Assembly (NCBI GenBank): GCA_964437505.1 | Contig: CAYTGU010000005.1 | Location: 15,645 to 79,644 of the forward strand | DNA from: an uncultured bacterium | GTDB lineage: Bacteria; JAHJDO01 | DNA: 64,000 nucleotides | Direction of reading: 5' to 3' | Program-made: the position numbers and the translations under genes | The notes under the pieces: model-generated | The model's database searches: none | What the model saw: only the letters and a program-made list of their open reading frames with translations | What the model was told of the DNA's origin: nothing | Shown here: in pieces, positions 9,538 to 40,368 of the stretch | Layout: every line of letters starts with the position of its first letter | How positions within the stretch are numbered: position 1 is the stretch's first letter

Positions 9538-10209
9538 TTATAACTCTGAAACAAGTTTTTCTTTTAACAGCATTTTTCTATACGATTCAGCTTCCATATT
9601 GTTGATCTGTTCAGATTGGTTTTTTGTAAAGAATTTCATTTTACCAAGCGATTTTGCTGCTACGAATGTCTTGCAGGCATCTTCAATGAGAAGAGTTCTA
9701 TAATAAGCCTCCTTTAAATTTGATCCAACAGTCAAAAGACCGTGATTGCACATTAGAACAGCGTTGTGTTTTTTTATAACATTTTTCACTTCTTCTGCCA
9801 GTTCTATTCCTCCCGGGAGTACATATTTTATAGTGGGAACATCACCTACCAGTGCGGCAAGATCCGGGGAGAAAGGCTTGAGTGTTATCTCTTGCATTCC
9901 AACTGCAGTAGCAATAGGAGCGTGAGTGTGAATTACAGCAGTTATATCTTTCCTTTCAAGATAACAACCTAAATGCATAGCGATTTCGCATGTCGGCTTT
10001 TTGTTTCCACATACAATATCTCCCGTTTTCAAATCAACTCCTATATAATCTGATGTTTTTGCTTCTTCAAAGCAAATGCCGCTGGCTTTCATATAAACAA
10101 TATTGTCAACTCGCGCGCTTATATTACCGCCCGGACCAACAACCAGTTCCTTGTCAGCAATCTTTTTACCTATTTCTACCAACTGTTTTCTAATTTCAAT
10201 ATTTTCCAT
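9538..10209 (-). CDS. Class II aldolase/adducin-family protein (L-fuculose- or L-rhamnulose-1-phosphate aldolase-like).
   Basis: 223 aa with a GPGGNISARV N-terminal motif and a His-rich metal site (AVIHTHAP) typical of the FucA/RhaD/AraD fold. Confidence 0.8.
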   Translation of the reverse strand: MENIEIRKQLVEIGKKIADKELVVGPGGNISARVDNIVYMKASGICFEEAKTSDYIGVDLKTGDIVCGNKKPTCEIAMHLGCYLERKDITAVIHTHAPIATAVGMQEITLKPFSPDLAALVGDVPTIKYVLPGGIELAEEVKNVIKKHNAVLMCNHGLLTVGSNLKEAYYRTLLIEDACKTFVAAKSLGKMKFFTKNQSEQINNMEAESYRKMLLKEKLVSEL

Positions 10210-10212
10210 TTC

Positions 10213-11397
10213 CTATTTCCCTTTCTCCATTTGTCTCAATGTATGATTTTGTAAAAAATATGCTCCATCCATAAATGTTTTTCTGATAGGGGTTAATTCT
10301 TCAGAGTCAAAGTCATCAACAAGTTTTTGTCCAAACTTGTTCATTTCCGTTCCTGCTATTATCGGAAGATTAAATTTTTTTGCAATTTCTACTGCTTTGT
10401 AGAGATTTTTTACTTTAATTCTTTTTTCCTCTTTGTCCTTTATATTGTAGTTTCTGTCAGGGATTATGTTCATCATTGAAATCCCCTTACCGATCAATAG
10501 ATTAAGTAATTCCTCCAGATTTTTCTCTCCATCAGAAAGTCCGTTAAGCCATGTTGCACACGGAATTCCGCCTAATTCTATTATCATCTTATTTACCGTT
10601 TGAATCTCAGGAAAGGTCGATGAATCCGGCTTTATATATGCGATACCCTCGTTTTTCATAAACTTTGAACGAATTATTTCGCACAGAACATAAGGATTAT
10701 CCCAACTGCTATTGATATCCTCTTCCTGCACTGAAAGTTTTGATCTCCAATATTTGATGAAGCTTGCAGAGTTTTTAAAAACATCTTTTGATTTATTATA
10801 AAAAGCTCTTAGGATGTGTCTTTCCGTGACGTTGTCGTTAGGAGTGAGGGGAATAACGTCTGTATCATATTCAATTCCGATATCGCTCAAATGATCATTT
10901 AATATATCCACCATTTTTCTGGTTCGCAGATGTGCTCGGTGAGACATCTCTTTTAATATTTTATTAGCAAGGGATTCAGTAGAGGGAAGTTTCGTAAATC
11001 CCGTCCCCATCAAGTAGTAGACTCCAGGTTCTCCGGGTGAATTTATCTCTTTATCTTTAAGTTCAGGAATGAAAACTCTGGTTTCTATGCCAACAGAAGC
11101 TTTTAGATTTAACAAGTCAGCTGCATAAAACAGCTCTTCAATTCCGTCCAAAACGTCAAAATCTACTACTTGGCATAACTTAATGCCATTTTTTTTGCAC
11201 AACCATGCTATCTTTATTGGCGAATAGCCATATCCGTTAAATGAAAAAAAACTGTGACAATGCATGTTTGAAATTTCTTTTTCCTTTAACCACTTGACTT
11301 TACCCTTTTTTTTGAGCTTAATAAGTTCCAAGAGAGCGTTTTTTCTTATGTCTTTATCAAAGTTATCAAGATTGGTTTCCAACAGCTCTATCATCAT
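10213..11397 (-). CDS. PHP-domain (polymerase/histidinol-phosphatase-like) metal-dependent phosphoesterase of unknown specificity.
   Basis: 394 aa with an NMHCHSFFSFNG N-terminal PHP motif. It is embedded in the sugar operon between the aldolase and SDR genes. Confidence 0.5.
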   Translation of the reverse strand: MMIELLETNLDNFDKDIRKNALLELIKLKKKGKVKWLKEKEISNMHCHSFFSFNGYGYSPIKIAWLCKKNGIKLCQVVDFDVLDGIEELFYAADLLNLKASVGIETRVFIPELKDKEINSPGEPGVYYLMGTGFTKLPSTESLANKILKEMSHRAHLRTRKMVDILNDHLSDIGIEYDTDVIPLTPNDNVTERHILRAFYNKSKDVFKNSASFIKYWRSKLSVQEEDINSSWDNPYVLCEIIRSKFMKNEGIAYIKPDSSTFPEIQTVNKMIIELGGIPCATWLNGLSDGEKNLEELLNLLIGKGISMMNIIPDRNYNIKDKEEKRIKVKNLYKAVEIAKKFNLPIIAGTEMNKFGQKLVDDFDSEELTPIRKTFMDGAYFLQNHTLRQMEKGK

Positions 11398-12188
11398 CTC
11401 ATTTCCTGTCCGCCGGTTACATTTATTGCCTGACCAGTCATGTAAGAGGCTTCATCACTTGCCAAAAAAGCTACTACATTGATAACATCGTCATAGGTGC
11501 AGCCTCTTGCTAACGGAACTTGTTCTATATATTTTTCCCTTACCTCTTCCTTTGAAATACCCCATTTTTTTGAATATTGCTCAAAGAGACTGTTTTTCCA
11601 TAAAGGAGAATCAAGAAAATTTCCGGGACAAACTGAATTAACTCTTATGCCATATGGAGCAAGATCCAGAGCAATACTTTGAGTTAGTCCTATGCCTCCA
11701 AATTTAGATGCAGCGTATGCAGAATTTTTAAAACTGCCTTTTTTACCTGATTTAGAGTTAATTTGTATAATCGTACCCTTCTTTTGTCTTTTCATCATCT
11801 TTGCTGCTTCACGTGCACATAAGAAATACCCAATGAGGTTTACATCAATCACTTTTTTCCATTCATTGAGCGGAAATTCTGTTATTTCCTTTGCGATAAG
11901 AATTCCAGCATTACTGACTAATATATCTAGATTCTTAAATTCTTTCTCAATCTTTTCAAACATACTGATTACCTGAGCTTCTTGTGTTACATCTACCTCT
12001 ATAGCAACTGCTTTAATTTTGTATTTTTCCTCTATCTCTTTAGCTACTTTTCTTGCATTTCTTTCTGATATATCTGCAACTGCTACCTGACATCTCTCTT
12101 TTGCAAAATATTCTGCTATTGCCTCTCCGAATCCTTGTCCTGCACCAGTTACTAAAACCGTTTTGCCCTTCAAACCAGGTTGTAACAT
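11394..12188 (-). CDS. Short-chain dehydrogenase/reductase (SDR) family oxidoreductase.
   Basis: 264 aa with a TGAGQGFGEAIA cofactor motif, NAG and the YAASK catalytic tetrad region. Confidence 0.85.
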   Translation of the reverse strand: MLQPGLKGKTVLVTGAGQGFGEAIAEYFAKERCQVAVADISERNARKVAKEIEEKYKIKAVAIEVDVTQEAQVISMFEKIEKEFKNLDILVSNAGILIAKEITEFPLNEWKKVIDVNLIGYFLCAREAAKMMKRQKKGTIIQINSKSGKKGSFKNSAYAASKFGGIGLTQSIALDLAPYGIRVNSVCPGNFLDSPLWKNSLFEQYSKKWGISKEEVREKYIEQVPLARGCTYDDVINVVAFLASDEASYMTGQAINVTGGQEMR

Positions 12189-12216
12189 TTTATGGAATCT
12201 CCTCTTATTTGTATTT

Positions 12217-13323
12217 TTATGGTTTTATAACCACTTTTAAAGCGTTTCCTTTTTTATCTAGCATTTTTTCCATCGCTTCAACTATGTTTTCTAAAGAAAA
12301 TATATGTGTAACTATTTTATCCATAACTAGTTTTTTGCTAACAATTAGTTTTAAAGCTTCTTCAAATTGTGATTTATGTGAAGCAAAAGCTCCGTAAATA
12401 GAAACTTCTTTGTAATGAATTATGTTCCCGTCCAATTTTAAAATAGAATTCTGTTTCGGGAATCCGGCAAAAAAGCTCAATCTTCCTTTCATAGCCATTG
12501 CACCTAAAAAATCCTCTGCTACTTTGCTAACAGAGCATGCAACTATTCCAACGTCAACCCCTTCGCCCTTAGTGATTTCTGATATACTCTGTACTAAATC
12601 AGCATCTTTAGTGGCAATATAATGGTCAAATCCAAATTCTTTTGCTTTTGTAAGCCTCTCTTCAGAATATTCAGCCAGTATAACCTTTGCTCCCTTAGCT
12701 TTTGCCAGTAGACAATGCATCAAGCCAATAGGTCCTGCTCCTACTACGGCAACGTACTCACCTCTTTTAATGTTTAGATAATTCTGCCCGTTTATTGCGC
12801 ACGAAAGCGGTTCAATCATTGCCAGATATTCATCGGAAATAGGCGCATCGCTTAGGACAGGGATTATAACACCCTGTTTTACAGCACGGTCCTGAACTAA
12901 TATGTATTCGGCAAAGCCTCCGGGATAATAATATCCAATAGGTTTGTTATTAGCGCACATATTATAATTACCTTCTCTGCAAGGTCTACACTCTTTCTTT
13001 TGGCAGCCTACTGAAGTTACCATGATTACTTTGCTTCCAATCTCGTATTCCCGATTTTTGACTTCAGAACCAATTTCTTCTACGATTCCTACGATTTCAT
13101 GTCCTATGATAAATTTGCCCTCGCCATATCCTCGAATTTGGGGAACGGATCCTTTAGTAGCGTCCTTTGTGCCTTCATACATTCTCCCGTCTGTTCCACA
13201 AACAGCGCAAGCGGTAACTTTTATAAGCACGTCGTTCTCTTTACAATTCGGCTTTGGAACGTTTTCAGTTCCCATATGTTTAGGTCTGTCCGTGTATAAA
13301 AAAGCGGCTTTCATTTCTTGCAT
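12217..13323 (-). CDS. Zinc-dependent medium-chain alcohol dehydrogenase family protein.
   Basis: 368 aa with a CAVCGTDGRMYEG catalytic-zinc motif, a CQKKECRPCREGNYNMC structural-zinc motif and a GAGPIG motif. Confidence 0.8.
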   Translation of the reverse strand: MQEMKAAFLYTDRPKHMGTENVPKPNCKENDVLIKVTACAVCGTDGRMYEGTKDATKGSVPQIRGYGEGKFIIGHEIVGIVEEIGSEVKNREYEIGSKVIMVTSVGCQKKECRPCREGNYNMCANNKPIGYYYPGGFAEYILVQDRAVKQGVIIPVLSDAPISDEYLAMIEPLSCAINGQNYLNIKRGEYVAVVGAGPIGLMHCLLAKAKGAKVILAEYSEERLTKAKEFGFDHYIATKDADLVQSISEITKGEGVDVGIVACSVSKVAEDFLGAMAMKGRLSFFAGFPKQNSILKLDGNIIHYKEVSIYGAFASHKSQFEEALKLIVSKKLVMDKIVTHIFSLENIVEAMEKMLDKKGNALKVVIKP

Positions 13324-17562: not shown

Positions 17563-17638
17563 GCGCCTGTAGCTCAGTAATGGATAGAGCAAGGGATTCC
17601 TAATCCCTGTGTCGGAGGTTCGAATCCTCTCAGGCGTA
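17563..17638 (+). tRNA. tRNA-Arg (anticodon CCT).
   Basis: Manual cloverleaf: acceptor GCGCCTG/CAGGCGT (G1·U72 wobble), D arm GCTC..GAGC, anticodon stem AGGGA/TCCCT with loop TTCCTAA, and a TTCGAAT T-loop. Confidence 0.8.
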
Positions 17639-17700: not shown

Positions 17701-17772
17701 GGGCGATTAACTCAGCGGGAGAGTGCTACTTTCACAGAGTAGAAGTCACTGGTTCAAACCCAGTATCGCCCA
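17701..17772 (+). tRNA. tRNA-Val (anticodon CAC).
   Basis: Manual cloverleaf: acceptor GGGCGAT/ATCGCCC, anticodon stem CTACT/AGTAG with loop TTCACAG, and a TTCAAAC T-loop. Confidence 0.8.
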
Positions 17773-18702: not shown

Positions 18703-19209
18703 ATGGAGGAGTTAACTATATACGTTGACGGGGCATCGGCTGGTAATCCTGGGAAAGCAGGCGTCGGTGTTGTCTTTTTTCGTGAAGGGGAAAAAGTAAA
18801 GGAATGTTCTCAATACATAGGAATTACAACAAATAATGTAGCTGAATATATGGCTGTAATTTTTGCCATGCAGGAAGCTCTGATTATGGGTGTGAGAAAT
18901 ATTGCTGTTTTTACAGATAGCGAGCTTGTTGCAAATCAGGTAAATGGTGTCTATAAAGTCAAAGATAACAATTTATTTCGCTTGCATAAACAGGTTCAAC
19001 ATCTAAAAAATGGTTTTAAAAAGTTTAATATTACCCATATAGAACGTGCGGGTAATAAGGAAGCTGATAAGTTAGCAAGCAGGTCGGTTGATCGCCTCGA
19101 TGTATGTCGGGGAGGAAAGTCCGGGCTCCAGAGAGCAAGATGTCCCATAACCAGGGATGGAAGCGATTCCGAGGAAAGTGCAACAGAAAATAAACTTCCC
19201 CGCACCTAA
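18703..19209 (+). CDS. rnhA: RNase HI-like ribonuclease H (archaeal/actinobacterial type). The annotated ORF reads about 135 nt into rnpB, and the true C-terminus is uncertain.
   Basis: YVDGASAGNPGKAGVGVV...TNNVAEYMAVIFAM...FTDSELVANQ...ERAGNKEADKLA carries the RNase H DEDD catalytic residues. The ORF tail (DVCRGGKSGLQRARCP...) is encoded by rnpB P1-P4 sequence. Confidence 0.8.
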   Translation: MEELTIYVDGASAGNPGKAGVGVVFFREGEKVKECSQYIGITTNNVAEYMAVIFAMQEALIMGVRNIAVFTDSELVANQVNGVYKVKDNNLFRLHKQVQHLKNGFKKFNITHIERAGNKEADKLASRSVDRLDVCRGGKSGLQRARCPITRDGSDSEESATENKLPRT

Positions 19210-19428
19210 TTTTAGGTGCGGGGTAAAGTTGAAATGGTGTGGTAAGAGCACACCGATCTGATAGTGATATCAGGTGCATGGTAAACCCCATCTGGAGAAA
19301 GGCTAAGTAAGAGGGAAGGGACTGCTCGTCTCAATTTAACCCTTGGGTAAGCCGCTAGAGGTCGATAGCAATATCGGCGCAAGATAGATGGTCAACTATT
19401 ACAGAACCCGGCTTATAGACCTGCTTAT
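19075..19428 (+). ncRNA. rnpB: RNase P RNA, bacterial type A (rnpB).
   Basis: Contains GGAGGAAAGTCCGGGCTCC (P4 5' strand), GTGCAACAGAAA, GGTAAGAGCACACC, GGTAAACCCCA and the 3' ACAGAACCCGGCTTA. The 5' AAGCAGGTC pairs perfectly with the 3' GACCTGCTT (P1). Confidence 0.9.
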
Positions 19429-19429
19429 T

Positions 19430-20011
19430 TTATCTATAAAGTCTGTGTTTTTGTATGTAGTCTTTAACTTTCTCAGGCAGTAGGTATTTTATCGGATTGC
19501 CAGATGTTATTCTCTTTCGAATGTCAGAAGAAGAGATTTTAAGAGAGGTAATCTCCATTATCTCCGTATGGTTTTTGAAAACTTGTTTTGCTCTTTCTAT
19601 ATCATATCCTGGACGAGTTGTTACTATAAACTTACACATTCTTAAAAGCTCATCAGGAGATGCCCATCTATTTATTTCCAAAAAAGCATCTGCGCCTATT
19701 ATAAAGTATATATTAGTATCTTTTCCGTATTTTTTCATGAGCGTTTTAATCGTATCTATAGTATGTGATGCGCCTCCTCTTTTTATTTCAATATCTGAGA
19801 CCTCAAAATAAGAATTATCAGATATTGCTAATTTTATCATCTTAAGACGATGCCGAGCATCAGCAAGATTGGAAGAGGTCTTGAGAGGGTTAAGGGCTGA
19901 AGGAATAAATATTACCTTGTCAAGTTTAAATTTATTGCAAACTTCAGAAGCGCTCACAAGATGTCCATAATGAATGGGATTAAAAGTGCCGCCCATAATA
20001 CCAATACGCAT
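19430..20011 (-). CDS. nadD: Nicotinate-nucleotide adenylyltransferase.
   Basis: Contains GIMGGTFNPIHYGHL, the (H/T)xGH nucleotidyltransferase motif. Length is 193 aa. Confidence 0.88.
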   Translation of the reverse strand: MRIGIMGGTFNPIHYGHLVSASEVCNKFKLDKVIFIPSALNPLKTSSNLADARHRLKMIKLAISDNSYFEVSDIEIKRGGASHTIDTIKTLMKKYGKDTNIYFIIGADAFLEINRWASPDELLRMCKFIVTTRPGYDIERAKQVFKNHTEIMEITSLKISSSDIRKRITSGNPIKYLLPEKVKDYIQKHRLYR

Positions 20012-27776: not shown

Positions 27777-28604
27777 TTACTTTCTGTATTTTACAGGAAT
27801 AGCATTTAAATCTTCTCCAAAACGTAGATCTATATAGAGAAGTTTTTTCTTTTGAGTTTGTCCAAGTCTGCTTAGAAGATTCTCTAATATTACGAGCTTT
27901 TCTTCAAAGCCAGTTTTGCCCATTCTTATTTTTATTTCATTGTCTTGGCATATAAAATCGAGAATCAGGGCTTTAGATCTTTTAACATTTATGTTTTTTA
28001 ACCTGCCAAATTCAGCAAGTCTTCCCACATTATAGGTTTTTATAATTGTAATAATCTTTTTTATTAATTCAGACACTTCGGGGTTTTTTATTTTCAATCC
28101 TATTATTTCAGGTAAACCTCTTGATCCATTAAGCTTAATAATTACCCCATCCTCATCTATCCCATATATATTGTGGTCGCATGAGATCTGTCCAATAGGA
28201 ATTCTCTCTTTTATATTTACTAAAATTATATTCGGAAATGAGCGCTCAATAACGACAGACTTTACATCTGGTAGGGCTTCGTAGCGTGATCTCAACCTGT
28301 TGATATCAAGAGCAAAAATATTCTCACCTTTTATATCATTAATTTCTTTTAAAATAACCACATTATCAAGAAATTTATTATTATTTACAATAACATTATT
28401 AATACAGAAGTAATTTGAATGAATAATGAATTCTTTAAATCTTAATACTATGAAAAAAGCGGCGTATATGATTAACAGTAGACCTATTATTTTGCTTATT
28501 CGTAAGGCTCTTTTTTTAATCAGCATTTTATGTGGATGCGGCGCGGCAGAGACTCTAGGTGCTATTTTAACATTCCTGCGAAGTTTTGTTTTTCTACTTT
28601 TCAT
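27777..28604 (-). CDS. ftsQ: Cell division protein FtsQ/DivIB (POTRA domain).
   Basis: 275 aa with an N-terminal TM segment, then POTRA plus the FtsQ beta domain. It lies between ddl and ftsA. Confidence 0.75.
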   Translation of the reverse strand: MKSRKTKLRRNVKIAPRVSAAPHPHKMLIKKRALRISKIIGLLLIIYAAFFIVLRFKEFIIHSNYFCINNVIVNNNKFLDNVVILKEINDIKGENIFALDINRLRSRYEALPDVKSVVIERSFPNIILVNIKERIPIGQISCDHNIYGIDEDGVIIKLNGSRGLPEIIGLKIKNPEVSELIKKIITIIKTYNVGRLAEFGRLKNINVKRSKALILDFICQDNEIKIRMGKTGFEEKLVILENLLSRLGQTQKKKLLYIDLRFGEDLNAIPVKYRK

Positions 28605-29505
28605 TTTTCCTGATTGCCAGATCCAGTAATCTCAAGCAGAGTTCCATGAAACTTATTCCAGCAGCCTGTGCAGCTTTTGGCAGCAAACTGGTTTCTGTAA
28701 GTCCTGGAATTGTATTAATCTCCAGAACATAGGGATTGAGTTTGCTGTCAAGTTTCATATCCGCTCTTGACATTCCAGAGCATCCAAGCACTTTATGGGC
28801 ATTGAGAGCTATCTGTTTTATCTGGGCGTTTTTCTCCTCTTGAAGCTTTGCAGGCACAACAAAATCCGTGGATTCTTTCTTGTATTTTGCATTAAAATCA
28901 TAAAATCCGGACTTTGGAATAATTTCAATTACCGGCAAAGCTTTCTCCTCTAAGATGCCGACAGTTATTTCTTTCCCGTCTATATATTTTTCACATATTA
29001 TATTATCATCATAACAAAAGGCAGTCTCAAGAGCTTTCTTAAATTCATCTTCTTTTCTTACAATAGATATCCCGATTGTTGAACCCTCAGTAGACGGCTT
29101 AACAACTATAGGAAAGTTCTCCAAAGGATTAATATGACATTTGCCTTTGCTCACTACTCTAAACTCTGGAGTCGGAATTCCAGCAATCTGAAACAAACGC
29201 TTGGAAGCGATTTTATCCATAGAGAGAGCGCTTGCAAGAACTCCGGAACCTGTATATGGGATGTTTAATATATCAAGCATTCCCTGTATTGTTCCATCCT
29301 CTCCGGGCTTTCCATGAAGAGCAATAAATACCAGATCTATTTTCTCTTTTATCAGCCTGTCAGGTAACTCTCTATTAACATCAAAAGCAGTAACATTCAG
29401 CTGAGCTTCTTTAAGAGCCTTTAGCACACAATTCCCACTTTTAAGAGATATTTCTCTCTCTGAAGAAGGTCCTCCCATTAAAATAGCAATACGCCTATTT
29501 TTCAT
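28594..29505 (-). CDS. ddl: D-alanine--D-alanine ligase.
   Basis: 303 aa ATP-grasp fold with HGKPGEDGTIQG and the C-terminal E..N..PG motif. Confidence 0.9.
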   Translation of the reverse strand: MKNRRIAILMGGPSSEREISLKSGNCVLKALKEAQLNVTAFDVNRELPDRLIKEKIDLVFIALHGKPGEDGTIQGMLDILNIPYTGSGVLASALSMDKIASKRLFQIAGIPTPEFRVVSKGKCHINPLENFPIVVKPSTEGSTIGISIVRKEDEFKKALETAFCYDDNIICEKYIDGKEITVGILEEKALPVIEIIPKSGFYDFNAKYKKESTDFVVPAKLQEEKNAQIKQIALNAHKVLGCSGMSRADMKLDSKLNPYVLEINTIPGLTETSLLPKAAQAAGISFMELCLRLLDLAIRKNEK

Positions 29506-30440
29506 ATCCCTATTATTTTAATTTCTTCCTCTAATTTTACACCAGTTTTTTCAAAAACTATTAATTTAATTTTTTTAATAAGTTTGAGCACATCCTGAGC
29601 GTTTGCATTGCCACTATTAATAATAAAATTGGCATGTTTCTCTGAGACCTGCGCATCTCCAACAGCAAGCCCTTTTAACCCAGCTTCGTCAATTAATCTG
29701 CCGGCAGAATGTCCATTCTGATTTTTAAATATACACCCTGCGCTTGGTATGTCAAGAACCTGTGTGGACTTTTTGTGCTCCAAAAGCTGGGATATTCGTC
29801 CATTGATTTCTTTTTCTTTTCTGCACTCTAATTTTAGCTTTACCTCAAGTATTATGTATTCGGATAGGTTAGACTTGCGATATTCAAAATGCAGGCCATC
29901 TTTTTTAAGTTCAGATACATTGCCCTTCATATCAATTACTTTTACTGATTCAACAAAATCCCCAATTGACACATGCTCTATGTTTCGGATTTCGGATTTC
30001 GGATTTCGGATTTTTTTCGTCCCTGCATTCATGCTCACTGCGCCGCCAACAGTTCCTGGGATACCTGCTGCAAACTCAAGTCCTGCAAGAGCTTCTCTTG
30101 CCGCTTGTTTTAAGACTCTTGAGAGCAAAGCACCAGTTCCGCATATAATAGATTCTCCTTTTATTTTGATACCACATAACCCATGTTCCAAATTTAACAC
30201 AACACCTCTTATCCCTTTATCACTGATCAATACGTTCGTTCCCTTGCCAATGGTTGTAACGGGAATGTTGTAACTATTACAGAACATGAGAGTGTTTTTG
30301 ATATCTGAAATATCTTTCGGATATATCCAAACATCTGCAGAGCCTCCAATTCTAAAGGAGGTATGCTTGGCTAAGAGTTCATTAAACCTGATCTCTCCTC
30401 TTATCAAATTACGGAACTCTTTAGCTAATTCTTTATTCAT
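29502..30440 (-). CDS. murB: UDP-N-acetylenolpyruvoylglucosamine reductase.
   Basis: 312 aa FAD-binding fold (GGSADVW..., GTVGGAVSMNAG). It carries an internal heptamer repeat; see the repeat feature at 29983-30010. Confidence 0.88.
   Translation of the reverse strand: MNKELAKEFRNLIRGEIRFNELLAKHTSFRIGGSADVWIYPKDISDIKNTLMFCNSYNIPVTTIGKGTNVLISDKGIRGVVLNLEHGLCGIKIKGESIICGTGALLSRVLKQAAREALAGLEFAAGIPGTVGGAVSMNAGTKKIRNPKSEIRNIEHVSIGDFVESVKVIDMKGNVSELKKDGLHFEYRKSNLSEYIILEVKLKLECRKEKEINGRISQLLEHKKSTQVLDIPSAGCIFKNQNGHSAGRLIDEAGLKGLAVGDAQVSEKHANFIINSGNANAQDVLKLIKKIKLIVFEKTGVKLEEEIKIIGI
29983..30010. repeat. Perfect tandem heptamer (TTTCGGA)x4, immediately followed by T7, inside the murB coding sequence.
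   Basis: Read directly: tgTTTCGGATTTCGGATTTCGGATTTCGGAttttttt. On the coding strand it encodes KKIRNPKSEIRN. Confidence 0.95.
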
Positions 30441-31825
30441 ATTAATTTATCGGCAAGTTTCCCTGCTACTTCGGAAATATCACCTGCTCCCATAAAAAGC
30501 ATTATATCTCCTTTCTCCATAGTATTGCTCAGATAACTGAGAATTCTACTTTTGTCAGGAATATATACGGCATTTTTATAGCCATGATTCTTCATAGTAC
30601 TAAAGATTATATCTGTATTCGCTCCCTTTATAGGAGCTTCTCCTGCGCTGTATACATCGGTTAATATAACCTTATCAGCTTTTGATAGAGACACAGCGAA
30701 CTGTTTGTAAAGTTTTTCAGTTCTTGTGTATCTATGCGGTTGAAATACAGCCACAATACGCTTTTTCTCTAAGTTTTTGGCTGTTTCTAAAACGGATTTA
30801 ATTTCAGCCGGATGATGAGCATAATCATCTATAACCATTATGTTGCCGATATGCGCCTTAATCTGAAATCTTCTGTCAACACCCCTGAAACTTTGCAGGC
30901 TTTCCTTAACTGCATCAAAGGATAATCCTATTTCCATACCAAGCGCAATTGCTGAAAGCGCATTAAGCACATTATGTTTTCCAGGAACACTGAGCGGAAA
31001 AGAGCCCAGTAATTCAGTATTTTTGTATACATCAAAACGTGTTGAAAGTCCTTCGCATATCAGGTTGTCAGCCCGTATATCAGCATTTTTGCTCATTCCA
31101 TAGGTTGTTATTGGAGTTTTAATTTTTTTTTTATGTAGTTTTGAAACCAGTTCTTTTACATTATTATTGTCAATGCAACAAAATATCCTGCCGGATTTAT
31201 CTATATGTTCTGCAAAATTGAGAAACGCATTTATAATATCTCCAAGATTCTCATAATGCTCCAGATGGTCTTCATCAATATTTGTAATAATGCCGAAATA
31301 CGGATTTAGTTTCAGAAAGGATTTATCGCTTTCGTCAGCCTCTGCTACAAACCATGGGCTTGCTCCAAAGCGGGCATTTCCCCCTAAAGAACTAATTTCA
31401 CCGCCTACAATTACTGTCGGGTCATACTCTGTTTCTATAAGCATATGCGCAATCATTGATGTTACTGTGGTTTTTCCATGACAACCTGTTACAAATATGC
31501 TCTTTTTGTTATTTGCCATTTTTGCGAGCAGTTCTGCTCTGTGAATTATTGGGATTTTTCTTTTTCTGGCCTCAACAAGTTCAGGGTTAGACTTTGAAAT
31601 AGCTGTGGAATAAACGATAAGATCCTGGCTGTTTATGTGCATGGAATTATGACCAGTGAAGATATGCGCGCCGTTTAGTCTTAGTTTATTGGTTATTGAT
31701 GAAGGTTTCTGGTCCGAGCCACTTACCTGATATCCTGATTTAAGTAGGATATAGGCAATCCCGCTCATTCCTATCCCACCAATACCAACAAAATGAATAG
31801 ATTTAGTTTCTTTTTGTATCATCAA
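30437..31825 (-). CDS. murC: UDP-N-acetylmuramate--L-alanine ligase.
   Basis: 462 aa with HFVGIGGIGMSG and GTHGKTTT Mur ligase motifs. Confidence 0.9.
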   Translation of the reverse strand: MMIQKETKSIHFVGIGGIGMSGIAYILLKSGYQVSGSDQKPSSITNKLRLNGAHIFTGHNSMHINSQDLIVYSTAISKSNPELVEARKRKIPIIHRAELLAKMANNKKSIFVTGCHGKTTVTSMIAHMLIETEYDPTVIVGGEISSLGGNARFGASPWFVAEADESDKSFLKLNPYFGIITNIDEDHLEHYENLGDIINAFLNFAEHIDKSGRIFCCIDNNNVKELVSKLHKKKIKTPITTYGMSKNADIRADNLICEGLSTRFDVYKNTELLGSFPLSVPGKHNVLNALSAIALGMEIGLSFDAVKESLQSFRGVDRRFQIKAHIGNIMVIDDYAHHPAEIKSVLETAKNLEKKRIVAVFQPHRYTRTEKLYKQFAVSLSKADKVILTDVYSAGEAPIKGANTDIIFSTMKNHGYKNAVYIPDKSRILSYLSNTMEKGDIMLFMGAGDISEVAGKLADKLI

Positions 31826-35882: not shown

Positions 35883-35956
35883 TACGCCAGGAGGGATTCG
35901 AACCCCCGGCCCTCTGCTTAGAAGGCAGATGCTCTATCCAACTGAGCTACTGGCGC
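35883..35956 (-). tRNA. tRNA-Arg (anticodon TCT).
   Basis: Reverse complement GCGCCAGTAGCTCAGTTGGATAGAGCATCTGCCTTCTAAGCAGAGGGCCGGGGGTTCGAATCCCTCCTGGCGTA. The anticodon loop is CTTCTAA and the acceptor stem again has G1·U72. Confidence 0.8.
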
Positions 35957-40282: not shown

Positions 40283-40368
40283 GCCGGAGTGGTGGAACTG
40301 GCAGACGCGCCGGACTCAAAATCCGGTGGAGCTTAAACTCCGTGAGGGTTCGACTCCCTCCTCCGGCA
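40283..40368 (+). tRNA. tRNA-Leu (anticodon CAA), with a long variable arm.
   Basis: Acceptor GCCGGAG/CTCCGGC, anticodon stem CCGGA/TCCGG with loop CTCAAAA, and a TTCGACT T-loop. Length is 86 nt. Confidence 0.8.

Follow-up and report, generated by a model that had tools for sequence, protein, structure and literature searches.

How can a perfect microsatellite, built from a unit that is not a multiple of three nucleotides, be kept inside the gene for an essential cell-wall enzyme? The question is raised by murB, encoding UDP-N-acetylenolpyruvoylglucosamine reductase, in a stretch of 64,000 nucleotides from an uncultured bacterium (contig CAYTGU010000005.1; the whole stretch is called the window here). 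At positions 29983-30010 the forward strand reads TTTCGGA four times without a mismatch, followed by seven T (30011-30017) and then CG; the first three of these T amount to a partial fifth unit. This array, first noted in a preliminary description of the window, is exact both in the sequence itself and according to Tandem Repeats Finder (TRF), which reports 29983-30013 with a period of 7, 4.4 copies, 100% matches and a score of 62, making it the top tandem repeat of the 64 kb. Since murB is encoded on the reverse strand, its coding strand reads ACG AAAAAAA (TCCGAAA)x4 CATAGAG, the nucleotides after the array being also given as CATAGAGCATGTGTCA. As argued below, we lean, without great confidence, towards the view that the site is a locus-specific hot spot at which heptamers expand and contract within a tolerant hairpin loop of a functional MurB.

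The array is beyond chance: in 300 first-order Markov simulations of the window, a perfect four-copy heptamer array never arose. Outside the murB site, no perfect heptamer array of at least three copies occurs in 228 kb (the window plus 13 related loci), and a genome-wide instability of heptamers was rejected on that ground. The other period-7 result of TRF in the window, at 10201-10232, is a degenerate purine-rich gene junction. The heptamer array is a property of the murB site, not of the genome.

The enzyme and its loop

The gene occupies 29502-30440 on the reverse strand and encodes a type II enzyme of 312 aa. Its identification as murB, already made in the preliminary description, is borne out by Pfam, by PDB matches and by the fold. 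Both the FAD_binding_4 (PF01565, 2.8e-21) and the MurB_C (PF02873, 3.9e-35) domains pass their curated cut-offs, and phmmer against PDB finds solved type II MurBs at E values from 9e-59 (3TX1) to 2e-51. An AlphaFold2 (AF2) model based on a 64-sequence alignment has a mean predicted local distance difference test (pLDDT) score of 91.7, and its top Foldseek matches are all MurBs, from Listeria, S. aureus and others (3TX1, 1HSK, 4PYT, 9DTK), with template modeling (TM) scores of 0.88-0.95 overall, 0.88-0.92 for 3TX1, 1HSK and 4PYT, and a root-mean-square deviation of about 2 Å. R188, C236 and E306 are conserved in the family alignments, where Y187-R188, A234-G235-C236 and E306 are invariant or nearly so; from the motifs FGYR, GSFFKN and LEPE we take these three residues to match R159, S229 and E325 of E. 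coli. The length of 312 aa, the motif AGC236IFKN and the best sequence and fold matches, all to type II proteins, assign the enzyme to type II and, with a Cys at the proton-donor position, to 'type IIb' as defined in PMC3689657. The open reading frame (ORF) is intact and its reading needs no frame change. Because the domains, the fold, the catalytic residues and the dcw gene context are all present, the window's murB is intact and its product presumably functional.

Alignment to solved MurBs places the anomaly precisely. Right after the invariant M-N-A-G, the 'A-Y-G-G-E' turn is swapped for a segment with 13 extra residues, and the earlier proposal that an insert replaces the canonical YGGE turn stands. 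The entire lineage-specific insert (29967-30020, reverse strand) is 54 nt long and covers codons T141-S158, between the conserved MNAG and IGD. It includes the A7 run (T7 on the forward strand, 30011-30017) directly 5' of the array, the array itself (29983-30010, encoding IRNPKSEIR(N)) and a non-repeat tail (29967-29982, encoding IEHVS); the peptide read through all three is T-KKIRNPKSEIRN-IEHVS. In the AF2 model the insert juts out as a hairpin, its strands spanning 140-143 and 155-158 and its tip being encoded by the repeat. The mean pLDDT is 60 for residues 141-150 and 72 for residues 151-160, falling below 50 at 149-151; such a hairpin with a low-pLDDT tip agrees with the surface loop envisaged from the start.

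Canonical MurBs (2MBR, 4JAY, 1HSK, 3TX1) have their N-x-G-A-Y-G-x-E turn at the same site of the FAD domain, right after N-A-G, and the remainder of the structures superposes with a TM score of about 0.9. Unlike them, the lineage studied here has neither the Tyr nor the Gly-Gly-Glu and features a hairpin of 11-18 residues instead. Thermus MurB (2GQT) reads MNAGTR, showing that the loss of Tyr is not unique to the lineage, whereas the long repeat-encoded hairpin is. The first residue of the insert occupies the place of the motif tyrosine (N-x-G-A-Y-G). In the P. aeruginosa enzyme, a hydrogen bond links Tyr-132 to the nicotinamide ribose of NADP+ (PMC3689657), and the numbering offset between E. 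coli Tyr125/Arg159 and P. aeruginosa Arg-166 suggests that Tyr-132 is this motif tyrosine. Because the first insert residue replaces it, the hairpin would spring from the rim of the substrate channel; according to the model, its base would lie at the rim and its tip would be exposed to solvent, so that it would not be a remote loop.

Alleles of the insert in relatives

A family search covering 5.8 billion proteins returned about 24 clusters at ≥72% identity; the next matches, from Omnitrophota, Nitrospirota and Firmicutes, are at most 48% identical, and a whole-protein scan of genome contigs gave, among the matches listed, only relatives at ≤45% identity. The proteins of the family fall into length classes of 295/296, 301, 305, 312/313 and 317 aa, and every length difference falls in the insert loop. 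Each of the ~24 clusters has a length that corresponds to no insert, a short insert, one unit, four units or the compensated allele of L091. For 14 alleles we compared the DNA between MNAG and IGD, where inserts in relatives measure 3, 21, 33, 54 or 66 nt.

The window shares (TCCGAAA)x4, identical at 28 of 28 positions, with the relatives L096, L097, L098 and L099 (312/313 aa). Exactly one TCCGAAA is found at the same place in L085-L087, L092 and L094 (305 aa), which upholds the idea that the repeat has expanded. Three further four-copy unit types occupy the same site: (ATCAAAA)x4 preceded by an A9-run head in L081 (313 aa), (GCGCAAA)x4 in L082 (312 aa) and (GGAAAAA)x2 (GGGGAAA)x2 in L083/L084 (312 aa). 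The remaining forms are a 21-nt non-repeat insert (L089, L090, L093 and L095; 301 aa), no insert at all (L088, reading NAG-A-IGD; 295 aa) and the composite allele of L091 described below. In four-copy alleles the total insert is always 54 nt, each unit has the form NNNNAAA, and the peptides encoded by all four array types are Lys/Arg-rich with a net charge of +4 to +5. Alleles with no insert or with the short non-repeat insert retain all catalytic residues. Four-copy alleles are as common in the family as one-copy alleles, which suggests that they are not deleterious and are possibly mildly favored. The A-run 5' of the array is not conserved: the window, L098 and L081 have A7-A9, most relatives have AAAGAAA or AAGAAA, and A8 or A9 also occur.

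The copy-number comparison proposed in the preliminary description has thus returned one or four units at the same site. The same text had regarded relatives that lack the repeat but keep the loop length as speaking against an expansion; such relatives exist, but in an unexpected form, the loop length being kept exactly with another repeat in place of TCCGAAA. Of the earlier suggestion of a tolerated loop expansion, the tolerant loop has survived, but not expansion as a single event, given that four-copy arrays of different units recur and one- and four-copy alleles are interleaved.

The allele of L091 (317 aa; L091 1511-1614, ENA ERZ23498673 scaffold_95499; protein P0005, variant P0121) reads TCCGAAA TCC[TCCCGAAAACCTTCGGGAC]GAAA TCCGAAA, that is, three TCCGAAA units plus a quasi-palindromic insertion of 19 nt; relative to a one-copy allele this adds 14 + 19 = 33 nt and remains in frame. 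It is direct evidence that single-unit changes occur and that a compensating indel can rescue them. The 19-nt insertion holds the inverted repeat CCCGAA/TTCGGG, and an origin by template-switch mutagenesis is suggested. In another relative, L100 (ENA ERZ27315925 k141_170928, 1170-1218), whose N-terminal part is 88% identical to the window's murB, the sequence runs ACGAG (AAAAAGG)x4 TAAAAGG TAA and then the contig ends. The array of L100 thus comprises at least five units, one of which contains T and creates an in-frame TAA, and the assembly breaks within the repeat. Being an error-prone contig tip, L100 is weak evidence; it could reflect heterogeneity in the population, a pseudogene or an error at the tip.

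The five genes with four TCCGAAA units are 82-91% identical at the DNA level and vary among themselves at 47% of third codon positions, yet the array differs at 0 of its 28 positions. No other 28-nt window of murB is invariant, the longest other invariant run being 19 nt. An array free of differences has a probability of about 2e-5 under the gene-average constraint, and of about 1e-8 if the third-position rate applied. The 15 nt directly 3' of the array typically show 5-7 differences between lineages, at or above the third-position rate, although for most pairs the excess is only marginally significant. On the sequence evidence, an invariant array beside such a fast tail would fit young, re-expanded arrays. 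In the window, L098 and L099, both array and tail are identical despite about 25% divergence at third positions (P ~0.01 per pair).

One- and four-copy states are interleaved in a DNA tree and, together with other states, thoroughly so in a protein tree of all family members; both trees are star-like. L081, with its four ATCAAAA units, is nearest to L096, which has four TCCGAAA units, at 91% DNA identity, and it nests with L096 and L097, to the latter of which it is 88% identical. The tail haplotypes IEHVS, IEYVS and IKY.. are each found with different copy numbers.

Slippage, the reading frame and competing explanations

What the reading frame permits was modeled by giving the window's murB zero to eight units. 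The ORF is kept only at 1, 4 and 7 units (305, 312 and 319 aa), exactly as the frame argument put forward for a 7-nt unit in the preliminary description had it; all other unit numbers end the protein after 144-172 aa, before R188, C236 and E306 are reached. In the same model, a change of ±1 A in the adjacent A-run restores the frame for off-frame unit numbers. Apart from L100, natural alleles with units have one or four of them, or the compensated three of L091: an uncompensated out-of-frame copy number is not seen in any intact allele of about 25 allele clusters. Nor did the family protein list, an N-terminal search for truncated alleles or a metagenome DNA scan reveal any uncompensated allele with 2, 3, 5, 6 or 7 units. 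The metagenome scan, which used a locally validated two-anchor pattern accepting 0-7 copies, found just four JGI contigs, all of them with one unit or non-repeat. The N-terminal search gave two matches, the contig tip of L100 and P0127, a partial MurB on a 555-nt ENA contig; the latter ends in ...GRSEEHTSELQSH, a translated Illumina adapter, and the contig is chimeric or untrimmed.

The alleles, their quantization, their restriction to one locus, their position in a loop and the conservation statistics are all observed; from them we infer a mechanism, together with the direction and rate of the changes and any fitness effect of a longer basic loop. A single loop unit in the context AAA-NNNN-AAA (for example, GAAA-TCC-GAAA) would provide direct repeats of 3-4 nt spaced 7 nt apart. 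Replication slippage between these would duplicate the 7-nt unit, and the arrays could then readily change length. As 7 is not a multiple of 3, only copy numbers of 1 mod 3 would persist: purifying selection on MurB would retain alleles with 1 or 4 units, a step of 21 nt or 7 aa, and off-frame unit numbers would be tolerated only where another indel made up for them. Turnover, by deletion from four units to one and re-expansion from the remaining unit, would outpace point substitution, leaving arrays perfect and replacing units wholesale, and a single unit that mutates during a one-copy phase would be amplified as a new unit type. Successive units would be read in all three frames, each base of the unit serving as first, second and third codon position, and stop-creating units would be excluded; three-frame reading and stop exclusion may together account for the conservation of units above that of ordinary silent sites. 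Since the AAA of every unit is translated in each of the three frames, the peptide would always be hydrophilic and Lys/Arg-rich. The route from one to four units could be a multi-unit jump, compensation through ±1 in the A-run, or slippage at the RNA level on A7-A9, and recombinational sharing of alleles between lineages may also contribute.

Several points weigh against this proposal, and the path from one to four units is its weak point. By single-unit slippage, the path crosses frameshifted, presumably lethal alleles with two and three units; neither such an intermediate nor a seven-unit allele was found, and for that reason recurrent re-expansion is something we infer and have not observed. 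Nor was the multi-unit jump, the A-run compensation or the RNA slippage observed. Moreover, TCCG-type alleles agree unusually well in the single unit GAAATCCGAAAC, a conservation that calls for additional selection. The array and tail common to the window, L098 and L099 could stem from recombinational sharing and not from independent expansions, and the star-like trees may themselves be blurred by recombination.

The strongest competitor, possible although we rather doubt it, is selection on the loop itself. The basic hairpin at the NADPH/UDP-sugar channel would be functional, its alleles would be kept and shuffled by recombination, and slippage would merely supply variation; the extension could serve the electrostatic capture of anionic substrates, or its surface might have to change if the enzyme is to evade some inhibitory protein, for instance a toxin or a lysis protein of a phage. 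The start of the insert at the position of the tyrosine that contacts the NADP+ ribose in P. aeruginosa (PMC3689657, given the presumed equivalence) is in its favor, but insert-free and short non-repeat alleles with intact catalytic residues indicate that the extension is dispensable, and the low-confidence tip of the AF2 model offers no defined surface. The net charge of +4 to +5 common to all four array types also suits a selected loop, but richness in Lys comes automatically with AAA units. A tail diverging at or above the third-position rate also counts in favor of selection, yet its excess is only marginally significant for most pairs and no inhibitor is known. Also on the side of selection are the frequency of four-copy alleles, equal to that of one-copy alleles even though deletion between perfect repeats should be easier, and the identical array and tail in three lineages about 25% diverged at third positions.

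A static history, in which one old expansion became a tolerated passenger in the loop and occasionally shrank to a single unit, appears improbable. It would draw on a deletion from four units to one that is mechanistically easy and that alone would scatter one-copy alleles among four-copy lineages, and on a loop that tolerates many lengths. However, an old neutral array should decay, yet in five lineages the array is the most conserved 28 nt of the gene and lies beside a fast tail. A single ancient event also cannot produce three other four-copy unit types at the same site, one of them nested in the TCCG clade.

A contingency locus was among the possibilities raised in the preliminary description. 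We consider it distinctly unlikely that murB is a contingency (phase-variable) switch in which gain or loss of one unit would reversibly turn the gene off as a bet-hedging entry into a non-growing or wall-deficient state; in a related version, transcriptional or ribosomal slippage on A7-A9 might restore part of the function of off-frame alleles. A perfect non-triplet repeat within an ORF is a hallmark of contingency loci based on simple sequence repeats (SSRs), and its perfection is kept across lineages; the units are open in all three frames, as are only 139 of the 256 possible NNNNAAA heptamers; A7-A9 adjoins the array in the window, L098 and L081, where ±1 A would restore the frame; and the array of L100, with its in-frame TAA, could reflect population heterogeneity. 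Against all this, the absence of uncompensated out-of-frame numbers, both from the intact alleles and from the scan accepting 0-7 copies, leaves the switch without support. In addition, murB is single-copy and lies within the dcw cluster, the A-run of most relatives (AAAGAAA or AAGAAA) is no conserved slippery site, and L100 is an error-prone contig tip. Very unlikely, too, is the stronger proposal that murB is a hypermutable switch, with single-unit slippage often yielding OFF cells that would be non-growing or wall-deficient and hence refractory to wall-targeting phages, predators or antibiotics, and that then revert or survive at a low level through transcriptional or ribosomal slippage in the A-rich tract; selection for mutability would in that case keep the array perfect in every lineage.

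Finally, an assembly or sequencing artefact, or a widespread mobile or functional (TCCGAAA)4 motif that has inserted in murB, is extremely improbable: although the exact 28-mer recurs in nine IMG/VR viral contigs, each time with four copies and unrelated flanks, independent assemblies and assemblers agree on the murB array, which is in frame and has one-copy homologues at the same site. Thus, the artefact feared in the preliminary description can be set aside, since four further assemblies from different samples (SPAdes-style, JGI and NCBI contigs of metagenome-assembled genomes (MAGs) among them) contain the same 28 nt, and the identical protein is recorded on five contigs from NCBI, JGI and ENA. 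That a longer array had been reduced to about four copies by De Bruijn assembly was also rejected: at 28-32 nt the array is far below the final k-mer implied by MEGAHIT-style 'k141' names, and the other assemblies agree. As for a traveling motif, control arrays of the same composition behave alike in viral contigs, with (CCTGAAA)4 in eight, (GCGCAAA)4 in one and (TCGCAAA)4 in none, mostly with exactly four copies, which suggests that the viral (TCCGAAA)4 occurrences are ordinary SSR background. The viral contigs concerned (L101-L109; for example, L101:2919-2946 and L108:10728-10755) are mostly GC-rich. In several of them the array lies between a stop codon and the ribosome-binding site and ATG of the next gene, and on the flanks of the L107 array there are degenerate units and a long inverted repeat.

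Surroundings of murB and comparison with known repeat systems

In the window, murB is a single-copy gene of a murC-murB-ddl-ftsQ cluster belonging to dcw, all on the reverse strand. Upstream lies murC (30437-31825; Pfam Mur_ligase, Mur_ligase_M and Mur_ligase_C), whose stop overlaps the start of murB, and downstream the likewise overlapping ddl (28594-29505; Dala_Dala_lig_N and Dala_Dala_lig_C), followed by ftsQ (27777-28604; POTRA_1 and FtsQ_DivIB_C). In some relatives the junction of murB and ddl is interrupted. L081 has three extra ORFs there (10750-12871; 450, 84 and 145 aa, with no Pfam matches), the largest of which holds a perfect 12-nt repeat, (AACTACCCAGAA)x4, at 11868-11915, whereas L083 (3445-3999), L084 (1462-2016) and L098 (2515-3210) each have an ORF weakly or faintly similar to Y1 (IS200/IS605-type) transposases. 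The murB-ddl junction appears to be an insertion hot spot in the lineage. Elsewhere in the window there are a bacterial class A RNase P RNA (19076-19431, forward strand, 291 bits) and four tRNA genes (17563-17638, 17701-17772, 35883-35956 and 40283-40368); no rRNA genes are present in the 64 kb.

A role of the array at the RNA or regulatory level finds no support: there is no Rfam family, promoter or terminator signal at the site, and mRNA folding at the array gives z values from -1.2 to +0.7, with no structure common to relatives. A structured or protein-binding RNA or DNA repeat element, such as iterons or a riboregulator, was rejected on the grounds that units are wholly different between relatives and no fold is conserved. 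About 70 nt from the repeat, at 30085-30101 on the forward strand and antisense to murB, there is a terminator-like hairpin, GCAAGAGCTTCTCTTGC, with a T-rich tail; two terminator-like sites were seen in the region where 0.7 would be expected, and the hairpin is probably due to chance.

Among known SSRs, heptanucleotide units are exemplified by the 7-bp repeats upstream of H. influenzae hmw1A and hmw2A. SSR contingency loci, with phase variation by slipped-strand mispairing in Haemophilus, Neisseria and Campylobacter, are reviewed in PMC11868660. The murB array resembles them in being perfect, in its non-triplet unit within an ORF, in the perfection being kept and in the presumed slippage. However, those loci are surface, restriction-modification and lipopolysaccharide genes, whereas murB encodes an essential housekeeping enzyme and is not a dispensable, environment-facing gene. 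Its intact alleles are in frame only (one or four units), with no OFF states and no evidence of ON/OFF switching. Also, unlike at typical contingency loci, it is the unit sequence that differs between relatives while the copy number is constant.

The second point of comparison is offered by in-frame coding variable number tandem repeats (VNTRs), with which murB shares length variation that is confined to a surface loop, proceeds in whole 7-aa steps and leaves the catalytic core untouched. It differs from them in having a 7-nt unit, an in-frame step of three units (21 nt) and units that are each read in three frames, so that the next in-frame state needs frameshifted intermediates or a multi-unit jump. 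In short, the array acts as a slipped-strand microsatellite does, and what it encodes is comparable to an in-frame loop-length VNTR. It does not qualify as a contingency locus, having no OFF alleles and an essential host gene, nor as a classical coding VNTR, its unit being no multiple of three.

The third is the group of slippage-prone homopolymers. Rescue by transcriptional slippage on poly(A) occurs in insect endosymbionts. The avoidance or rescue of such runs in coding sequences has been treated by Baranov et al. 2005 (PMC1088944) and by Ackermann and Chao 2006 (PMC1378130), the latter reporting that essential and highly expressed genes have mononucleotide runs below the expected length. 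The A7-A9 beside the murB array is similarly a potential site of transcriptional or replicational slippage. Unlike slippage-rescued genes, murB needs no frame change and its A-run is not conserved; the rescue of off-frame alleles is purely hypothetical here. A programmed frameshift or transcriptional slippage site was rejected as well, the ORF being intact and A7-A9 being present in three alleles only.

A targeted literature search found no description of a comparable system, and a perfect heptamer array that is kept in murB across a lineage, quantized to one or four units and, as we propose, rebuilt time and again from new units is unusual. As a rule, microsatellites with non-triplet units are found only in contingency genes that the cell can do without; here one resides in an essential cell-wall enzyme of an uncultivated lineage. 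There is a practical warning in this, as MAG annotation or polishing pipelines could take such arrays for errors. For the biology of these bacteria, the locus offers a natural system for studying how arrays cross lethal frameshifts, be it by multi-unit jumps, by compensating indels like that of L091 or by slippage rescue. For the MurB family, which is an antibiotic target, it offers a natural system for exploring how much sequence freedom is allowed to a loop at the substrate channel.

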